Shown here: in pieces, positions 1 to 6,070 of the stretch
How positions within the stretch are numbered: position 1 is the stretch's first letter
Layout: the number at the start of each line of letters is the position of its first letter
Source: a virus
DNA: 6,070 nucleotides
Virus record (IMG/VR): IMGVR_UViG_3300045988_001464
Location: 1-6,070 of that record
Strand: one strand, 5' to 3'
Translations under genes and position numbers: made by a program
The notes under the pieces: model-generated
Seen by the model: the letters and a program-made list of their open reading frames with translations, nothing else
What the model was told of the DNA's origin: nothing
The model's database searches: none

Positions 1-55
1 AAATAATCCTTCGGATAGTTCGCATAGCGAAGCTTAAGCATATCGGGGTATAATG
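1..55. repeat. Terminal direct repeat, copy 1 (identical to 6016-6070); overlap from linearising a circular genome
   Basis: Base-by-base comparison: aaataatccttcggatagttcgcatagcgaagcttaagcatatcggggtataatg occurs at 1-55 and again at 6016-6070. The reading frame of the capsid gene is continuous across the implied junction 1/6015. Confidence 0.95.
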
Positions 56-767
56 TAATATAACTGGTACCTTGCCAATAATCCACATTATAAGCATAAG
101 CTAAATGCTTCTCCCATTGGGAATTGCTGAAGAAATCAAAATAAATCTTCTGATAAGTGAAAATAGGGAGCATATTTACTGCCTGACTTACAGAGTACAC
201 AAGGGGGTTTTCTCCATCGCTAAGACTATCAAGACCCAAATATTTCTTAGTAATCGCAGCCTTAGCCGTATTAGTCTTATCAATTATAGACCCATAGCCA
301 AGTAAATCCAATAACTTACAAGTACCATAGACATAGGGAAGACCAGCATCATCACGAGCATTAGGCTGGTCCGCAGTGTTCAGAGTAAGCAATAGACTAT
401 TAAACTGAGCCATAGTAGTATAAGGAACAGAACTTAATGCAGTAGTATTCTTATCACCACTTGCCGCACTCGTCATATAATCAGTCATTTGGGTAAATGC
501 CTGCGGAAGAGCACGGGAAATCAGACGTAACGGCACAGCGTAGAAGTCATAATACTCCTTAATACGAGTATAAGCAGCCGTATTAACAGGAACAGTACGG
601 GTAAACCAGTCAGAGGAAATACGATACTTAGTACCAGGAGTAGCAATCTGCCAATAGCAAGGAAGAATTTCGCCTACTTTAGCTGTAAACAATTTTTTCG
701 AACTTAAATCGAAAGAGGACCGATGGGTAGGAATCTTAGCATGGTCCAAAGGGTTAAAATCACTCAT
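1..767 (-). CDS. VP1: Major capsid protein VP1 (Microviridae F-like), N-terminal part; it runs off the window start and continues at 6015
   Basis: Not in the ORF track because it is open to the window edge. Manual translation from the ATG at 767-765 gives MSDFNPLDHAKIPTHRSSFDLSSKKLFTAKVGEILPCYWQIATPGTKYRISSDWFTRTVPVNTAAYTRIKEYYDFYAVPLRL...YQKIYFDFFSNSQWEKH...SYITLYPDMLKLRYANYPKDYF, with no stop down to base 1. The RSxFDLS...GxLxP...PG N-terminus is typical of gokusho/alpavirus-type VP1. Bases 767 + 961 (6015-5055) = 1728 nt = 575 codons plus stop, in frame. Confidence 0.92.
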   Translation of the reverse strand, partial: MSDFNPLDHAKIPTHRSSFDLSSKKLFTAKVGEILPCYWQIATPGTKYRISSDWFTRTVPVNTAAYTRIKEYYDFYAVPLRLISRALPQAFTQMTDYMTSAASGDKNTTALSSVPYTTMAQFNSLLLTLNTADQPNARDDAGLPYVYGTCKLLDLLGYGSIIDKTNTAKAAITKKYLGLDSLSDGENPLVYSVSQAVNMLPIFTYQKIYFDFFSNSQWEKHLAYAYNVDYWQGTSYITLYPDMLKLRYANYPKDY

Positions 768-785
768 AATTAATTAGTGTTAAAA

Positions 786-2465
786 TTAAACCATACGGTT
801 GAATATATTATTAGCATCATTAAGTTTCTTGTGCTTAATCATATCACGACAGAATGTTGCACTACGATACCAGAGTTGCTCAAGGAGTTGAACCGTTTCA
901 CATGAAACGTCCGACAAGACATCACGCTCCTGCCCGTTCGAAGGCAACGCAAACATACAATCCGAAAGTTCGGGGTATTGGGCACGGAGGTTATATGCAT
1001 TTCGTAAACTTTCATAATTCTTTTTCTTCTCATACTCTATGCCTTTCTTAATAATAAAATCAATACGACCGGAGTAAGCACTAATATCAGAACCGAAGCC
1101 AGGCAAATGCCAGTTACGGAAGAACTTAAAGGCAAATAAGAAAAGCCGATATAACTTATTAATATAAGATTCAATATCGACATCGCTAGAACTGTTACAG
1201 AACCTAGTAAGGCACCGAGCAGAATGTAATATAATCTTATCATCATCAGTAAGAATAGGATTAACTTTAAGATATTGATAATAAGTGCGGACAAGACTCA
1301 AAACTGAGTCCTGGGCATAGTCAATGAATCCGAATTTTGCAATTCTTTGAGGCGTTCGGTGTACAGCGAGAAGAATTCGAGCAATCGCAGTACCATCGTC
1401 ATTGCGAGCAGACGAGAATCGGGGCAATAAGGTACGGATATACGACATGGGTGGAGTTGACCGAACACTGATACCGTTGAAATTATAGACTCTTCCGTTA
1501 ACGACAGAATCGATTTTTTGCTCAATTTGCGCATAAGGATCTTCATTTTCCACGAAATCGCAACCTTTCTCAAAGAATCCGAGAGACGCTCTTGATCGGG
1601 GTTTAAACGAGCGGCATGAGCGATATAATAAGGGAGCAGAACTAAGGCTGTTAACGTAACTCGCAACGTACGAACTAGCGCCGCCAGCGGCACGTTGGAA
1701 ATCTGAACGACCGAGTTTCCAACTCTTAGCGTGACAGTATCGTAAAACCTCGGCGACTTTCTCCGAGTTCGTGAATAATAAGAGATGATAATGCGGGCGA
1801 AAATGCACGGGTCCGTACTCACCCACAGCGTAGAAATGTAACGGTTCATAAGATCCTAGTTTTAAAGATAAATGTTTGCGTAAGCGCTTAATATAATTCT
1901 GAACATCAACATAATTCAGGAAGGGTATAAGATTATCACGGCCGTATTGCGCAGAAGCGGGATAGTCCGTTTTATCAACGGCTTGCGTTTTACCGATAAA
2001 ACTACGAATAGCATCCATACTAAGAAACCAATTATCCTTAACAGGAACATATTCCTTAATCTCACGGTCAAACGGAACAGTGCCCTGAACCTGTTCGAAA
2101 AAAATATGACGCAACACGGAGTTATCATTACATTGATACTCGGAAACAGGGATATATTTATGATATTCATCACCAAAATGAATATCTCCTGAGATACCTA
2201 CAACGTCCTCATATTCACTATGCAAGACTTTACAATCAAATAGAGGGATATGTTCGTTATCATACGTAAGCGTAACAAAATAAGAATACTTAAAAGCACT
2301 TCCAGCGGTCTTCACGCGCATGGACGCTTTCTGAGCACGCTTATGGATACAATAATCGCATTGACCACAATCCACGGCAATGCGTGCACCAGTGTAACGA
2401 TTAGTAATAAATGAACGATGTTGACAATGGTCAACCGCTTTCAGTAAATCAGGAGAAAATTTCAT
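786..2465 (-). CDS. VP4: Replication initiation protein VP4 (HUH rolling-circle endonuclease, phiX174 gpA-like), 559 aa
   Basis: N-terminal Cys cluster CGQCDYC (aa 33-39). RCR motif I is FVTLTYD (aa 63-69). Motif II (HUH) is HYHLLLF (aa 225-231, nt 1785-1793 for HYH). Motif III with two tyrosines is YVASY (aa 266-270, nt 1656-1670). Stop is TAA at 788-786, 18 nt before the VP1 start. Confidence 0.95.
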   Translation of the reverse strand: MKFSPDLLKAVDHCQHRSFITNRYTGARIAVDCGQCDYCIHKRAQKASMRVKTAGSAFKYSYFVTLTYDNEHIPLFDCKVLHSEYEDVVGISGDIHFGDEYHKYIPVSEYQCNDNSVLRHIFFEQVQGTVPFDREIKEYVPVKDNWFLSMDAIRSFIGKTQAVDKTDYPASAQYGRDNLIPFLNYVDVQNYIKRLRKHLSLKLGSYEPLHFYAVGEYGPVHFRPHYHLLLFTNSEKVAEVLRYCHAKSWKLGRSDFQRAAGGASSYVASYVNSLSSAPLLYRSCRSFKPRSRASLGFFEKGCDFVENEDPYAQIEQKIDSVVNGRVYNFNGISVRSTPPMSYIRTLLPRFSSARNDDGTAIARILLAVHRTPQRIAKFGFIDYAQDSVLSLVRTYYQYLKVNPILTDDDKIILHSARCLTRFCNSSSDVDIESYINKLYRLFLFAFKFFRNWHLPGFGSDISAYSGRIDFIIKKGIEYEKKKNYESLRNAYNLRAQYPELSDCMFALPSNGQERDVLSDVSCETVQLLEQLWYRSATFCRDMIKHKKLNDANNIFNRMV

Positions 2466-2467
2466 AA

Positions 2468-2776
2468 TTATTTACGTTTATCAATTACTTGGTGACGATT
2501 ACGACAACCAAATGAAATATGAATAAATGTGGGATATAATATCAACTGATCAAATACATGAACATCATCCGAATATCTATGAATATATTCAAGTAAATGA
2601 TTATAAGAAGTAGAACCATAAGGTTTCATATCAATAGCCTCTCCAACCAAATGCTGAGATGTAGGAGCACCATTACAAGCTTTATTCTGTTCAGGAGTAC
2701 GTCTAGCACTAGTCACCGAAAAATGAACATTAGAGTAGAGCAGATACTCAAGAAAATGCATAAGAATATAATTCAT
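2468..2776 (-). CDS. Peptidase M15 (M15A / Peptidase_M15_3-like) zinc D-Ala-D-Ala carboxypeptidase-type cell-wall hydrolase; putative endolysin, 102 aa
   Basis: SARRTPEQNKACNGAPTSQHLVGEAIDM matches the family signature (S-x-x-R-T/S-P-x-x-N ... S-x-H-x(6)-D). The candidate zinc ligands are His42 (nt 2653-2651), Asp49 (2632-2630) and His86 in FIHISF (2521-2519). There is no N-terminal signal peptide or TM segment. The start overlaps the upstream peptide's stop (ATGA at 2776-2773), and its stop lies 2 nt before the VP4 ATG. Confidence 0.85.
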   Translation of the reverse strand: MNYILMHFLEYLLYSNVHFSVTSARRTPEQNKACNGAPTSQHLVGEAIDMKPYGSTSYNHLLEYIHRYSDDVHVFDQLILYPTFIHISFGCRNRHQVIDKRK

Positions 2777-2859
2777 AGTCCGATAGCATTAAGAATATAG
2801 CCTAATGCGGCAGAAACAGCACCGATAACAATTTTCCAAATATTACTACTTTTCATCAT
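2773..2859 (-). CDS. 28-aa single-pass membrane peptide (MMKSSNIWKIVIGAVSAALGYILNAIGL); candidate holin-like or lysis accessory peptide
   Basis: This is the only open frame bridging the end of the 64-aa ORF (2846) and the peptidase start (2776). It has a short polar, Lys-containing N-terminus followed by a roughly 19-residue Gly/Ala-rich hydrophobic helix. 15 of 28 codons end in T, matching the genome's genuine coding frames. Its start overlaps the upstream ORF by 14 nt, and its stop overlaps the peptidase ATG. The upstream part of track ORF 2773-3102 is rejected as an off-frame artefact. Confidence 0.5.
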   Translation of the reverse strand: MMKSSNIWKIVIGAVSAALGYILNAIGL

Positions 2860-3040
2860 TTTGAATTTTAAGCTCAACAAAGTTATTTTCTTCCTTAATC
2901 GAATCCACAATAACAATAAGACCCAATGAAGAAACTCGCTCAGAATAATTTCCGAGACCATCGAGAGAATCGACAATATAAGGCGAAATAACATCACGAC
3001 CAGTGTTTTTTTCCTTAACCGAAATAATAAACTTTTGCAT
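2846..3040 (-). CDS. Hypothetical protein, 64 aa, first gene downstream of the promoter
   Basis: MQKFIISVKEKNTGRDVISPYIVDSLDGLGNYSERVSSLGLIVIVDSIKEENNFVELKIQNDEK has ordinary soluble-protein composition and mostly T-ending codons. It sits about 45 nt downstream of the predicted transcription start. I recognise no family. Confidence 0.6.
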   Translation of the reverse strand: MQKFIISVKEKNTGRDVISPYIVDSLDGLGNYSERVSSLGLIVIVDSIKEENNFVELKIQNDEK

Positions 3041-3091
3041 AATTGTAAGAATTTTAAAAGGTTAATAATAGTTGTAACTTCTAACTGGGGG

Positions 3092-3122
3092 CAAATATAC
3101 AAACTATTTTCATAATTGCAAA
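3092..3122 (-). promoter_or_regulatory. Bacteroidetes-type promoter: -33 TTTG (3122-3119) and -7 TATATTTG (3099-3092), with a 19-nt spacer
   Basis: The minus strand reads cTTTTGcaattatgaaaatagtttgTATATTTGcccc. This fits the Bacteroides primary-sigma consensus TTTG / TAnnTTTG. I found no other exact TAnnTTTG on the coding strand by eye. It lies in the AT-rich end of the intergenic region, preceded by an A9 tract (plus-strand T9 at 3132-3140) and followed by the first ORF at 3040. Confidence 0.5.
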
Positions 3123-3160
3123 AGAAAACTATTTTTTTTTAGATCCTACCGTAGGGTGTG

Positions 3161-3229
3161 AGTTGTGCGTTTATGGACAAGAGAAAGGAGAAATCGAGAG
3201 GATAACTCGATTTTGCTTCGCACACAACT
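3161..3229. other. Nested stem-loop: outer stem 3161-3169 / 3219-3229 (9 bp, 2-nt bulge) enclosing a perfect 8-bp hairpin 3191-3198 / 3206-3213
   Basis: agttgtgcg pairs with cgcaca(ca)act. The inner hairpin is aaatcgag-aggataa-ctcgattt. The direct repeat gcttcgc occurs at 3215-3221 and 3234-3240. Confidence 0.6.
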
Positions 3230-3253
3230 AGGGGCTTCGCTTAATTAACAAGT

Positions 3254-3274
3254 GGGTGTATACAGAGGTGTATA
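3254..3274. repeat. Two tandem iteron-like copies of GGTGTATA (3255-3262 and 3267-3274, 12-nt period)
   Basis: The sequence reads gGGTGTATAcagaGGTGTATAgg. The same 8-mer, and the 9-mer GGGTGTATA, recurs at 3395-3403. Confidence 0.6.
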
Positions 3275-3279
3275 GGCAC

Positions 3280-3302
3280 GGCAAGGCAGAAACTGTCTTG
3301 CC
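3280..3302. other. 9-bp hairpin (ggcaaggca-gaaac-tgtcttgcc, one G-T pair)
   Basis: Pairing was checked position by position, from 3280-3302 inward to 3288-3294. It is followed by TTT on the plus strand. Confidence 0.6.
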
Positions 3303-3320
3303 TTTGCGCACCTACGTGCT

Positions 3321-3343
3321 AAAATACCGAAGCGGAACGCTTC
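3321..3343 (-). terminator. Possible weak intrinsic terminator for the minus-strand operon: hairpin gaagcg-ttc-cgcttc followed by ggTATTTT
   Basis: The 6-bp GC-rich stem is 3329-3334 / 3338-3343. The minus-strand T-rich tail is the complement of aaaata at 3321-3326. The same region can also fold into a longer 12-bp imperfect hairpin (3331-3363) that is followed by T6 (3367-3372) on the opposite strand. Confidence 0.3.
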
Positions 3344-3378
3344 TTTAAGGAAGTCGCTCCGCTCCGTTTTTTGATCAG

Positions 3379-3425
3379 GCCCTACGCGGGCGGCGGGTGT
3401 ATATCGCTCAAACGCCGCGATGGGC
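3379..3425. other. GC-rich stem-loop: core stem gcggcg (3390-3395) / cgccgc (3413-3418), 17-nt loop carrying the third GGTGTATA copy, outer clamp gccc/gggc
   Basis: The core stem is 6 G-C pairs. The loop 3396-3412 reads ggtgtatatcgctcaaa. Positions 3379-3382 pair with 3422-3425 across an internal loop. The 60 nt at 3361-3420 contain 37 G+C by direct count, visibly above the rest of the genome. Confidence 0.6.
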
Positions 3426-3431
3426 TTTTAG

Positions 3432-3457
3432 TCCTGAAGCATGCCAGGGTATCAGGA
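3432..3457. other. 6-bp hairpin tcctga / tcagga with a 14-nt loop, the first structure after the VP2 stop
   Basis: 3432-3437 pairs with 3452-3457. The loop contains the palindrome gcatgc. Confidence 0.45.
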
Positions 3458-3499
3458 TGCAATGTATAAATATACTCATATTTACGACACGTAGAAAGA

Positions 3500-4603
3500 T
3501 TATTTACGGCCAAAGTTACCAAAATGAGCACCAGCGCCAATAACATTACCAGCACCAGAGGCAACAGCACCAAGACCACGGGAGACAGAATCCCAATAAT
3601 GAGTACGGCCTTGTTTGCGAACCAACTCTGCGCCATATTCAGCAGCTCTCTGGTTTGCCATAGAAGTCTTATATTCCGTATGTTTACGAAGCTTAACATT
3701 CTTGTAATCATAAGTAGAATCACGATACTGCAATTCATGCGAAGCATTAGCAGCCTTGATTAAAGAATCAGCCGTCTCGGAAGCCACACGATTATCAATT
3801 TTCTTACCAGAAGCCTCAGCAGCAGTAAGAATAGCACGCTGAATTTCAGTCTGGATTTGCTTCTCAGTAAGAGCACCTTGAGTCTGGAGATTGGCTAAGG
3901 TTTGAGCCTTAATAAACAAATCAGCCTGTTGGTTCTGGTCCATATATTTATTCATAATACGTTGAGCATCAGAATTAAGCAAAATCTGTGCTTCTTGAGC
4001 AGCAGATATACGTTCAGCAAACTGGGCGTTTTTTAAATTCTGGGCCTCAGTAGACTGGTCCAAAGCAGCAGATACACGGCCCGTATCCTTATTCCAATAA
4101 CCGGAGGAGCCAATAGCTAGATTCTTCCAGTTAGTAAGACCTCTATAATAATCAGACAAAAGAGGAGTTACCGTATCAGTCTGACGTGCACGAGAGCCTG
4201 ATTCACCAGCAGAAGCCTCAGAAGCCTTAGCTTGAGCAAGGGAAGCAAGAGACTGAAACACGCTAGAAAAATTAGGCTTATAGGCCTGCATACTAGGAAC
4301 AGGAGCAGCAGTAGCAGCAGCTCCGCCTGAAGCAGGGGACCTAGAACCAGCCATAGCAGCAGAACCTTGAACAAACGGATTCAAACCGCGGGAAATCATA
4401 GCGCTAGGAGAGTTATAGGCATTATTCATACCCCACATCTGTTGCTGCCAATCACGTTGTATTTGGGCCTGTTGAGCATTAAACGCGTTTTGTTCACGCA
4501 TCATGCGGAGATTAACCTTATTCTGATGATTCTGATTAACCATACCGACAACATTGTCGGTAAGGTTTGCAGCCGAGGAAGCTATAGCATCAAATAATCC
4601 CAT
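3500..4603 (-). CDS. VP2: Minor capsid / DNA pilot protein VP2 (phiX174 H analogue), 367 aa
   Basis: The N-terminus MGLFDAIASSAANL...NKVNLRMMREQNAFNAQQAQIQRDWQQQMWGMNNAYNSPSAMISRGLNPF matches the conserved VP2 N-terminal block of gokusho/alpavirus-type microviruses. It is followed by an Ala/Ser/Gly-rich linker, a long Gln/Ala-rich helical segment and a Gly-rich C-terminus. The ATG overlaps the upstream stop (TAATG at 4605-4601). Confidence 0.85.
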   Translation of the reverse strand: MGLFDAIASSAANLTDNVVGMVNQNHQNKVNLRMMREQNAFNAQQAQIQRDWQQQMWGMNNAYNSPSAMISRGLNPFVQGSAAMAGSRSPASGGAAATAAPVPSMQAYKPNFSSVFQSLASLAQAKASEASAGESGSRARQTDTVTPLLSDYYRGLTNWKNLAIGSSGYWNKDTGRVSAALDQSTEAQNLKNAQFAERISAAQEAQILLNSDAQRIMNKYMDQNQQADLFIKAQTLANLQTQGALTEKQIQTEIQRAILTAAEASGKKIDNRVASETADSLIKAANASHELQYRDSTYDYKNVKLRKHTEYKTSMANQRAAEYGAELVRKQGRTHYWDSVSRGLGAVASGAGNVIGAGAHFGNFGRK

Positions 4604-5043
4604 TATTCAGGAGAGGCAGATGCGGAATCCGAAGACGGCGCTGCCTTTTGCTCTGCCAACATAGATTCGGCATAAGCCGATAGTTCAGACTTCTCACTAG
4701 CCAACTGCTGTAAAACAGCCTGACGTTCAGACATAGTTTGACAATGACGGGAGATAACACAATCGAAACGTTCTTCATCAGTCATACCGTCCATTATAGT
4801 AGACTGAGTAGGATGCATTTGAGCAAGAATATTCTGAACATTCATATCACCAAGCAAACGACGATACTTCTCCTGATTTAATAGAATCTGCGTCATATCA
4901 CATTGAATCAAATCACCGTCAGGAGACTCATCGTACATAACTGAATCATAGACAGACTGTTGATAACACGGATTATCCTCAATCAACTCGGGAACAACCT
5001 CGCTTTTAATATAATCAGGGTTTTTATAAGCAAAATTTCTCAT
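4603..5043 (-). CDS. Putative internal scaffolding protein (VP3-like), 146 aa, acidic
   Basis: It is a small acidic protein between VP1 and VP2, with mostly T-ending codons. It starts 11 nt after the VP1 stop, and its stop overlaps the VP2 start by 1 nt. The assignment rests on size, charge and position only. Confidence 0.55.
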   Translation of the reverse strand: MRNFAYKNPDYIKSEVVPELIEDNPCYQQSVYDSVMYDESPDGDLIQCDMTQILLNQEKYRRLLGDMNVQNILAQMHPTQSTIMDGMTDEERFDCVISRHCQTMSERQAVLQQLASEKSELSAYAESMLAEQKAAPSSDSASASPE

Positions 5044-5054
5044 AACAATACAAA

Positions 5055-6070
5055 TTAATAAGGTAAACCATTTCTATCCAAGTTCTGTACGGCATATACT
5101 TGGAAATTAACATTACACAACAACTGGTCAAATGCAATAGAACAGTTAGCAGCATCAACTTGAGGAACGAATATAGAATTCAGCTGTTGAGGACGAACTT
5201 TCATAGACTGGTAAGACCAAGCACCGGAAGAAGTCAATACCTGCCAGCCATCAAGAGGAGCAGACCAAAACTGATAAGCAGCACCAGCACGGAATCCAGC
5301 GTGAACGGTATCAATATTAGATTTCCATTGCCAATAACGGAGGTTATAACCAAGAGAACCAGAAACACTACGGCCAGGGTTATTCTGAAGATTCAGAGCA
5401 GGGACAACCTGCATACCAAGCTGATCAAATGCAGGTTGCGGGAAGTCAGAGACAGCAGTCACGGTCAGTTGAGGATTTTGGCCAGTCAGATTCCAATCCA
5501 GCATAGGTACAGCGTGATACACACACATAATTACCTGATGTTCAGCGCCACAGTCATAAGTAATAGTATGTCCGGAATTACTAGATACACCTTTGCCAGC
5601 AATAGAAGCCTGAGAAGAATCAGAATCAAGATTAGTATTAACTACCTCATTAATATTAATTACACTAGACCAACCGCCAATATAATGTGCATGATTGCCC
5701 ATGTATTCGGGGGCTTTAATACCAAATTGGGCGGCCATCTGGTCCGAATAATCCTTGCTAGCAAATTGAACTACTTCTTTCCAGCGCTGGAGATACTCTG
5801 TTGCACGAATTGAGAGAGCAGATAAATCAGAGTTTAATACAACATTACGAAGACCAGAAGTAGAAGAAACAGTTACACCAGCGCTACCATCAAGAACACG
5901 AAGAGGAGAAGACAAAGGGAGAGTAACAATACGATTAGAAGAAGCTCCAGCTTGATCAAAAGTCGGAGGTAGAACAGCAACCGAACCATACTGACTACTC
6001 GGGAACATGCCCATAAAATAATCCTTCGGATAGTTCGCATAGCGAAGCTTAAGCATATCGGGGTATAATG
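5055..6070 (-). CDS. VP1: Major capsid protein VP1, C-terminal part (6016-6070 duplicates 1-55; the real continuation is 6015->5055)
   Basis: Track ORF 5055-6056 begins at an internal Met (MLKLRYANYPKDYF...) that is also read at 41-39 in the N-terminal piece. The frame stays open up to 6070. Stop is TAA at 5057-5055. Codons are predominantly T-ending, as in the other genes. Confidence 0.92.
   Translation of the reverse strand, partial: LYPDMLKLRYANYPKDYFMGMFPSSQYGSVAVLPPTFDQAGASSNRIVTLPLSSPLRVLDGSAGVTVSSTSGLRNVVLNSDLSALSIRATEYLQRWKEVVQFASKDYSDQMAAQFGIKAPEYMGNHAHYIGGWSSVININEVVNTNLDSDSSQASIAGKGVSSNSGHTITYDCGAEHQVIMCVYHAVPMLDWNLTGQNPQLTVTAVSDFPQPAFDQLGMQVVPALNLQNNPGRSVSGSLGYNLRYWQWKSNIDTVHAGFRAGAAYQFWSAPLDGWQVLTSSGAWSYQSMKVRPQQLNSIFVPQVDAANCSIAFDQLLCNVNFQVYAVQNLDRNGLPY
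6016..6070. repeat. Terminal direct repeat, copy 2 (duplicate of 1-55)
   Basis: Exact 55-nt identity with 1-55. This is redundant sequence, not extra genome. Confidence 0.95.

Follow-up and report, generated by a model that had tools for sequence, protein, structure and literature searches.

What is a virus that packs its genes so tightly doing with 459 nucleotides (nt) of DNA that encode no protein? The question is raised by a 6070-nt stretch (the window; IMG/VR record IMGVR_UViG_3300045988_001464, positions 1 to 6,070), a microvirus genome in which a gap at 3041-3499 separates VP2, the gene of the pilot protein, from a 64-amino-acid (64-aa) open reading frame (ORF) that we call ORF64. The conserved unit in this gap is 3141-3441, all of it non-coding, and we hold with moderate confidence, from comparison of sequences, that it is a cis-acting region of folded single-stranded DNA (ssDNA) on the packaged strand, most likely a complementary-strand origin or, in other words, a single-strand initiation signal. 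Within the literature that could be searched, the element is previously undescribed.

The window is a complete circular microvirus genome of 6014 nt whose cut falls within the major capsid gene; it must be complete and circular because its first 56 nt (1-56) recur at its end (6015-6070) as a terminal redundancy. All of its long ORFs lie on the minus strand, and because Microviridae package the coding-sense strand (which we take to be established), the packaged viral ssDNA should be the minus strand of the window, so that packaged strand and coding strand would be one and the same in this phage. A preliminary description of this DNA, made from the sequence alone, had already singled out the gap, and its 459 nt stand, with the remaining gaps measuring -1 to +69 nt where it gave -14 to +18 nt. 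The GC-rich centre that it reported is equally real: 37 of the 60 bases at 3361-3420 are G or C, and G+C reaches 50.5% over 3141-3441 vs 40.7% for the rest of the genome.

Is the region folded, and has the fold been kept? Both strands fold better than shuffled controls, whether with RNA parameters (z of -4.2 and -4.0 for the two strands of 3041-3499) or with DNA parameters (-4.5 and -5.0 for the two strands of 3141-3441). A curated nine-helix model was tested on 99 sequences against slid controls and 500 shuffles; 98.2% of its cells are paired (36-47% in the slid controls), two-sided changes are found at 22 pairs (4-9 in the controls) and in 315 cells (4-60), and not one of the 500 shuffles matches the pairing and two-sided-change values. 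Counts for single helices were extended to 208-231 unique sequences. In all, about ten helices in 3141-3441 are maintained by compensatory changes, which are abundant. The stem-loops first proposed at 3161-3229 (P1 in our numbering, enclosing P2 and a mini-hairpin), at 3280-3302 (P5), at 3329-3343 (P7) and in the area of 3379-3425 (P9 and P10) are thus borne out by covariation; a further hairpin at 3432-3457, made of the tail of the element and the spacer beyond it, turns out to be lineage-specific and is not conserved.

What kind of nucleic acid leaves such a record? In helices that were defined by Watson-Crick covariation only, 4532 cells are Watson-Crick and 42 are mismatches other than G.T; G.T pairs number 16 when read on the plus strand and 19 when read on the viral strand. 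Wobbles, at ~0.4%, are no commoner than other mismatches and show no strand bias, and the switches from A:U to G:C have taken place nearly without G:U intermediates. The pairing chemistry looks like that of DNA, unlike that of structured RNA. The structured non-coding RNA (ncRNA) that the preliminary description kept as its alternative therefore loses ground, with no RNA wobble signature and no Rfam match: a scan of Rfam 15 at E up to 10 returned, for this region, only a chance-level ylbH (E = 7), and a scan for tRNA and tmRNA found none.

The element consists of two modules. The first, a core that we call M1, is present in all four lineages in which we have found it, with its stems fully re-coded from one lineage to the next, and it comprises the following features.

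3141..3250, minus strand: core module M1
3161-3167/3223-3229, minus strand: P1 (viral AGTTGTG/CACAACT), which closes a three-way junction
3168..3190, minus strand: conserved pyrimidine-rich single strand of 23 nt, viral 5'-CTCCTTTCTCTTGTCCATAAACG-3', near-invariant in alignments A1 and A2
3191-3198/3206-3213, minus strand: P2 hairpin, viral loop TTATCCT (conserved GTTATC)
3214..3222, minus strand: mini-hairpin 1, viral T-GCGAAGC-A
3234..3240, minus strand: mini-hairpin 2, viral GCGAAGC, with a stem of only 2 base pairs (bp)

Read along the packaged strand, M1 runs from mini-hairpin 2 through the 5' arm of P1, mini-hairpin 1, P2, the conserved single strand and the 3' arm of P1 to a small hairpin, P0, and an A-run. 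Seven arm types of P1 occur in 226 genomes, all of them perfectly complementary, and P2 has more than 25 arm types, with both sides changing in 7 of 9 pairs. The CTTG within the CTCCTTTCTCTTGTCCATAAACG stretch is invariant across the four lineages (TC or CC follows), and the stretch is our candidate for a priming site or, possibly, a nick site.

M1 is carried by every member of the main family (>230 genomes), by Microvirus mar56, by the Dulem virus 245 family and by phiHBP1, an isolated phage of Bacteroides fragilis; across the lineages that share it, the identity of the replication protein, Rep, to that of the window is about 30-45%. Microvirus mar56 (Rep 45% identical) has ATTTCTA/TAGAAAT as P1 and TTTTCGG/CCGAAAA as P2; in the Dulem 245 family, whose Rep is 33% identical along half of its length, P1 is CACTTAT/ATAAGTG. 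In phiHBP1 (Rep 32% identical), P1 is GACTTTCG/CGAAAGTC, with the same TGCGAAGCA, and P2 is AACCGGA/TCCGGTT with the loop GTTATC, followed by a CCCTTGT stretch and then the A-run; this copy was missed by nhmmer and came to light via a scan for mini-hairpin words. The class of conserved single-strand motif is common to mar56, the Dulem 245 family and phiHBP1.

The mini-hairpins deserve a closer look. Mini-hairpin DNA is defined as GCGNAGC and GCGNNAGC (2026 review, PMC13037366), and to the two copies in M1 the second module adds a third.

3356..3362, minus strand: mini-hairpin 3, viral GCGGAGC, within the invariant block GGAGCGGAGCGAC

The viral word of mini-hairpin 1 was read in 231 genomes, where its forms include GCGAAGC (100), CCGAAGG (65), ACGAAGT (20), GCGAAAGC (20) and CCGGAGG (7), and its closing pair is always Watson-Crick. 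Mini-hairpin 2 is GCGAAGC in 227 genomes, GCGGAGC in 7 and ACGAAGT in 2, the last being a compensatory change in a 2-bp stem; a stem of 2 bp that is compensated makes sense as d(GCGAAGC) and not as RNA. Mini-hairpin 3 varies at the middle base of its loop only, as AGCGGAGCG (GGA, 218), AGCGAAGCG (GAA, 18) and AGCGTAGCG (GTA, 1). The loops of the small hairpins are G-N-A or G-N-A-A on the viral strand only, with the middle base free (GAA, GGA, GTA, GAAA), and the counterpart loop of a second phage family is GNAA, in which each of the four bases is seen at N (GAAA, GTAA, GCAA, GGAA). These loop motifs, taken with the one 2-bp stem, point to the viral strand as the functional one. GCGNAGC is seen 7 times in the window vs 1.95 expected, a number that 0 of 200 shuffles reach; in mar56, 7 of 7 non-coding mini-hairpin words are on the viral strand, and phiHBP1 has 6 on its viral strand within 136 nt. 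The short direct repeats listed in the preliminary description—gcttcgc twice (3215, 3234), gctcc twice (3356, 3361) and cctac(c)g three times (3145, 3311, 3381)—are all present, and the first two kinds are nothing other than the arms and loops of the three mini-hairpins.

The words of the element are those published for G4, St-1 and alpha3, at their priming sites, and for RSF1010 ssiA. Primase primer sites for the conversion of microvirus ssDNA to double-stranded DNA carry GCGAAAGC (G4) or GCGTTAGC (St-1, alpha3), and RSF1010 ssiA contains CCGAAGG (PMC13037366). The same review describes single-stranded promoters of phage N4 that are formed by GCGGAGC and GAA-loop hairpins, and it notes that mini-hairpins are poorly bound by SSB (PMC13037366).

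The second module, M2, is exchangeable, and it contributes, besides mini-hairpin 3, these features.

3251..3441, minus strand: module M2, with covariation and a conserved tail that ends in CCTGAAG
about 3256-3274, minus strand: variable hairpin
3280-3285/3297-3302, minus strand: P5, with covariation
3308-3311/3316-3319, minus strand: P6
3329-3334/3338-3343, minus strand: P7 hairpin, in which A3330:U3342 becomes G:C (78 and 120 sequences)
3379-3382/3388-3391, minus strand: P9, with the loop-to-flank pairing 3385-3387/3393-3395
3403-3407/3417-3421, minus strand: P10

The pair C3385:G3395 is C:G in 195 sequences, G:C in 6 and U:A in 6, with zero mismatches, and this covariation defines a pairing of the P9 loop with its 3' flank; what results is a compact pseudoknot or else an alternative hairpin. 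Two other helices were considered here and set aside. One, proposed by RNAalifold (CGCUCCGCU/GGCGGCGGGUG), has C:C or C:A at 3360:3395 in 12 variants, whereas 3385:3395 covaries perfectly. The other is the alternative fold that the preliminary description drew at 3331-3363 ("P7alt," 3331-3336/3358-3363), which might have made a terminator/antiterminator switch; the covariation at 3335:3359 is better explained by the free middle base of mini-hairpin 3. On the gene-sense RNA, P7 followed by GGUAUUUUAG matches in a terminator-like scan, and P7 with its U-rich tract is probably the terminator of the VP1-VP2 operon.

In some genomes of the main family (L354, L356, L362, L364 and L369), M2 is cut short or gives way to a simple hairpin and a T-run; the M2 of mar56 and of the Dulem 245 family is different, yet rich in viral-strand mini-hairpin words. 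The boundary between the modules is itself eventful. After 3249 (TTAATTAAC) there is an insertion hot spot, where a subset of the main family has an extra hairpin of ~35-40 nt (e.g., CCTAGATCC...GGATCTAGG); L382 and L384, of the Dulem 245 family, have an insert of ~270 nt between M1 and M2; and L014 and L364 have in common an unrelated block (…GGTTTAGGTTAAAAAAATAGGGGAAGACAACAAGTGAGTC…) that adjoins one or the other module, which suggests recombination at the module boundary. M2 also holds, on the plus strand, three copies of GGTGTATA (3255-3262, 3267-3274 and 3396-3403), two of which make the variable hairpin and the third of which belongs to the invariant block that precedes P10; a repeat bound by a protein is one possibility.

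How widely, then, has all of this been kept? The unit 3141-3441 is the most conserved segment of the genome, with 89.1% identity across 98 relatives (Rep 84.8%, ORF64 86.0%, the capsid protein 77-83% and VP2 77.7%), an apparent conservation that is inflated because the relatives were retrieved via conserved blocks within the element. Its locus and orientation are identical in 99 of 99 genomes. By blastn, the region is in 34 phage records (dog, lemur and human samples), its identity equalling or exceeding the genome-wide identity in the species compared; no enterobacterial microvirus is among the blastn matches for the region, the origins of G4, St-1 and alpha3 not having been aligned to it directly. 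A specific 23-nt block retrieved, among the matches listed, 98 IMG/VR contigs and >118 metagenome contigs, many from the human gut, and the contigs among these matches are only microvirus-sized, all of <=9.6 kb and most of ~6 kb. A search of genome contigs for host or prophage copies with a 15-nt pattern gave only chance matches among the matches listed and is uninformative; a search with the H-variant 5' block gave two chance matches only.

How might such a structure work? On the reading that we favor, the injected viral strand would be coated by host SSB, and the hairpins—above all, the three very stable d(GCGNAGC) mini-hairpins—would remain folded and free of it. The three-way junction of M1, in which P1 closes mini-hairpin 1 and P2, would then present the conserved 23-nt single strand, and a host priming enzyme could begin an RNA primer there. 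The leading candidate would be primase acting directly, as at G4, with RNA polymerase or the PriA primosome as the alternatives (the phage encodes no primase gene), and extension of the primer would give the double-stranded replicative form. M2 would be an exchangeable accessory cassette, possibly an auxiliary origin or an enhancer, that probably also ends VP1-VP2 transcription. Of the ideas in the preliminary description, that of a folded-ssDNA origin is the one that the compensatory stems, the Watson-Crick-only pairing and the three viral-strand mini-hairpin words support best, and its function is what we infer from them.

There is a good deal to be said against this proposal, beginning with the inflated conservation. 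GNRA and GNA loops are known in RNA too, and the choice of strand depends on the loop motifs and that single 2-bp stem. The energies of folding are about equal on both strands, and the consensus architecture as a whole, computed with DNA parameters, has only marginal stability (about -3.5 kcal/mol); function would have to rest on local hairpins and not on a global fold. Covariation free of wobbles would fit cruciform extrusion at a plus-strand origin, too. At ~300 nt and ~10 hairpins, the element exceeds both the G4 origin and the phiX174 n' site in size. Finally, the CTCCTTTCTCTTGTCCATAAACG stretch contains no CTG, the triplet of Escherichia coli DnaG, which may not be that of the Bacteroidales primase.

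Could the element be the other origin? A plus-strand (double-strand) origin, which we consider unlikely but the most serious of the competing explanations, would have Rep (VP4) nick the viral strand in the M1 single strand, at or near CTTG, with P1, P2 and the mini-hairpins extruded from the supercoiled replicative form and thereby presenting that strand. The Reps of phiX174 and of the pC194 type cut after CTTG, and it is CTTG that is invariant in the single strand of all four lineages; the extrusion of a cruciform predicts covariation that is not only wobble-free but also strand-symmetric; and a universal M1 beside an exchangeable M2 mirrors the layout of double-strand and single-strand origins (dso and sso) in rolling-circle plasmids. 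The two origins could also coexist in the region, for instance with M2 as sso and M1 as dso. Yet the full nick consensus, CTTGATA, is absent from the viral strand, where only CTTG is invariant, and the documented mini-hairpin sites are priming sites and ssDNA promoters, not Rep nick sites. The loop motifs, moreover, are constrained on a single strand only, and the plus origin of phiX174 and G4 lies inside the rep gene, not between genes.

Somewhat more doubtful is an element of the gene-sense RNA: a terminator, an attenuator or a stabilizing 3' untranslated region of the VP1-VP2 transcript, which would set transcription or decay into the operon of ORF64, lysis and Rep. The terminator-like signals on the gene strand speak for it (P7 with GGUAUUUUAG, and P2 with the pyrimidine tract as well), as do the genomes without M2, which have a plain hairpin and T-run terminator in the same place, and the GNRA/GNA loops on the gene strand are RNA motifs too. 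A terminator, however, requires one hairpin, not ~10 and invariant linkers besides; G:U is almost absent on the gene strand (19 of ~4600 cells); the conserved 2-bp stem would be unstable as RNA; and M1 is kept even alongside a separate simple terminator.

One may also imagine, with rather less conviction, that the element acts at two levels, the folded viral strand recruiting a host polymerase and the plus-sense RNA that it makes (~100-300 nt, M1 and M2) being functional itself. Such an RNA could be a primer like ColE1 RNA II, its fold governing the switch to DNA synthesis, or a stable antisense RNA with VP2 as an added regulatory target. On this view, the features of the plus strand (terminal G:U pairs and unpaired regions rich in purines) would no longer conflict with the DNA mini-hairpins of the viral strand; the conserved terminal G:U pairs of the plus strand are G:C in the Dulem 245 family. 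If true, Microviridae would gain their first reported non-coding RNA.

That the element is purely an antisense structured ncRNA—some 300 nt from the plus strand, divergent from the ORF64 promoter and convergent with VP2, acting in trans or as an antisense regulator—strikes us as improbable. When helices are chosen on the plus strand, the ratio of G:U to A:C stands at 548:24 (1.4-3:1 in slid controls), 81 of 81 sequences give that strand the more stable consensus fold, the unpaired regions and several loops are purine-rich there, and a long-range helix, P3 (3229-3237/3422-3430), is possible on the plus strand only. We dropped this idea as our lead because the helices, P3 included, had been chosen in an orientation that permits G:U. 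The G:U excess is circular, and it sits in terminal pairs, in the inconsistent position 3286:3296 and in P3 itself, whereas the unbiased wobble test is symmetric between the strands (16 plus, 19 minus). P3 was rejected in its own right: it has zero two-sided covariation, it is broken by the GGGACTTCGTTT variant that compensates mini-hairpin 2 locally (in its 2-bp stem), and its 5' arm is still conserved in genomes without the partner. The plus strand, furthermore, has no Bacteroidota -7 box (TAnnTTTG), the motifs upstream differ between lineages, Rfam offers no match and the loop motifs fit the viral strand.

Least probable of all is some other DNA-level signal, either one for packaging or an attachment site of folded ssDNA for integration by host XerC/D as in CTXphi; the structure is on the packaged strand, GGTGTATA occurs three times and Alpavirinae-like proviruses do exist in Bacteroidetes, but the contigs with the element among the matches listed are <=9.6 kb with no integrated copy seen, binding arms that would make a dif-like pair were not identified, and microvirus packaging is coupled to Rep-driven synthesis and is not known to use a packaging site.

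With the candidate complementary-strand origin still our preferred reading, what surrounds it? The genes and the flanks of the element, in gene order, are as follows.

769..1 joined to 6014..5055, minus strand: major capsid protein, first in the gene order
between the major capsid protein and VP2, minus strand: a 146-aa protein
4603..3500, minus strand: VP2, the pilot protein, next after the 146-aa protein
3442..3499, minus strand: spacer from the VP2 stop codon to the element, lineage-specific, aligning in 40% of relatives with 52% identity
3041..3140, minus strand: putative promoter region of the ORF64/lysis/Rep operon, outside the folded element
3040..2846, minus strand: ORF64, the 64-aa ORF, first gene past the gap
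after a 28-aa membrane peptide, minus strand: M15 peptidase
after the M15 peptidase, minus strand: Rep (VP4, an HUH endonuclease) of 559 aa, last in the order

The promoter region holds a putative promoter of the Bacteroidota type on the minus strand, with -33 TTTG (3122..3119), 19 nt and -7 TATATTTG (3099..3092), and an A9 run (3140..3132) upstream. A scan for TANNTTTG matches at 3092-3099 on the minus strand, a sigma-70-like scan flags 3122->3094 as well, and the box ...TTTGCCCC is conserved in relatives; TAnnTTTG has four matches genome-wide, 4 of 4 on the gene strand. Toward the other flank, the VP2 stop lies 0-10 nt past CCTGAAG in most relatives, and the element therefore occupies the entire gap in those genomes; that VP2 might end inside the conserved CCTGAAG block is true in a few genomes only. 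Several GenBank records carry annotated "hypothetical protein" coding sequences over the element (L350, which is phiHBP1, 2326-2736; L008, 406-732; L006, 682-834; L005, 112-408). They are probably not genes because their indels are not multiples of three and covariation tracks helices, not codons. Between ORF64 and the M15 peptidase lies an unlisted hydrophobic ORF of 28 aa (MMKSSNIWKIVIGAVSAALGYILNAIGL; 2860..2774, minus strand), 84% conserved in relatives, which may work with the peptidase in lysis as a holin-like partner.

And who is the host? Two IMG/VR contigs, L363 (21.7 kb) and L366 (26.4 kb; locus 27-6679), bear a type I-C CRISPR-Cas system with Cas5c, Cas8c, Cas7, Cas4 and Cas1c, and 12 of the 18 spacers in its array match this microvirus clade, several at 100%. 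The named homologues of Cas8c (81-87% identity) belong to Bacteroides, Parabacteroides and Phocaeicola, and since a Bacteroidales array devotes 12 of 18 spacers to the clade, its host should be found among the gut Bacteroidales. One spacer (TTGTCTATAAACGTTGAACTCACAC...) targets the conserved single strand of M1; type I-C targets DNA, and this spacer is therefore uninformative on transcription. The P0 region at 3149-3160 (minus strand, TCACACCCTACG) is identical over 12 nt to the 5' part of the L366 CRISPR repeat (GTCACACCCTACGTGGGTGTGTGGATTGAAAC), which is probably a coincidence (a rough estimate of its chance is <1 in 1000). An RNA anti-CRISPR, in the form of a solitary repeat unit, was considered and rejected: it would need a second stem arm and a handle, neither of which is present, and the 12-nt match exists in a subset of relatives only.

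Why should any of this matter? For the start of the complementary strand outside the phiX174/G4 group, the literature that we searched gives only tentative single hairpins (PMC9865509), and the paper on phiHBP1, the first isolated Bacteroidota microvirus, is silent on the region (PMC13064476). What we offer is a concrete candidate origin, the best-conserved segment in abundant phages of the human and animal gut, and since its M1 core is common to a phage that can be cultured, phiHBP1, the question of the origin is directly testable. If we are right, the link between mini-hairpin DNA and priming sites would extend from enterobacterial phages to Bacteroidales, and origins here would be modular, with a second module that can be exchanged.

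The nearest of the known systems is the oric of G4, St-1, alpha3 and phiK, which likewise lies in non-coding DNA of a microvirus, on the packaged strand, and has a cluster of stem-loops. As in G4, a mini-hairpin word stands beside a single strand (GCGAAAGC in G4; GCGAAGC or GCGGAGC here, with GCGAAAGC as a natural variant), and exclusion of SSB has been proposed for origins of the G4 type (PMC13037366). The differences are plain as well: ~10 helices, three mini-hairpins and ~300 nt vs three hairpins in G4, a core built on a three-way junction, a Bacteroidales and not an enterobacterial host, no CTG start triplet, and a position after the pilot gene VP2 instead of between genes F and G. RSF1010 ssiA and ssiB, which serve the RepB' primase, show how a hairpin with CCGAAGG helps a primase to engage ssDNA, and CCGAAGG is the second commonest mini-hairpin 1 here (65 of 231); ssiA, however, is a 40-nt plasmid signal with a plasmid-encoded primase, and this phage encodes none. 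In size and in its cassette-like exchange, as in M2, the element resembles the folded ssDNA of 150-300 nt at ssoA, ssoT, ssoU, ssoW and the minus origin of M13/f1, which are active in one orientation and read by host RNA polymerase or primase; unlike ssoA, it has no CS-6 (TAGCGT, or ACGCTA) in 3041-3499, and architecture and hosts differ. The hairpins of the smallest microviruses (PMC9865509) are intergenic, too, show compensatory substitutions and have been tied tentatively to the initiation of the negative strand, but they number one or two, of 13-64 nt, with no mini-hairpin words reported, in place of two modules and 300 nt. Phage N4, last, has hairpin promoters in which GCGGAGC or GAA-loop mini-hairpins on ssDNA are recognized by a polymerase, much as we imagine for the element, except that N4 brings its own virion RNA polymerase and its sites are early promoters, not origins of replication.

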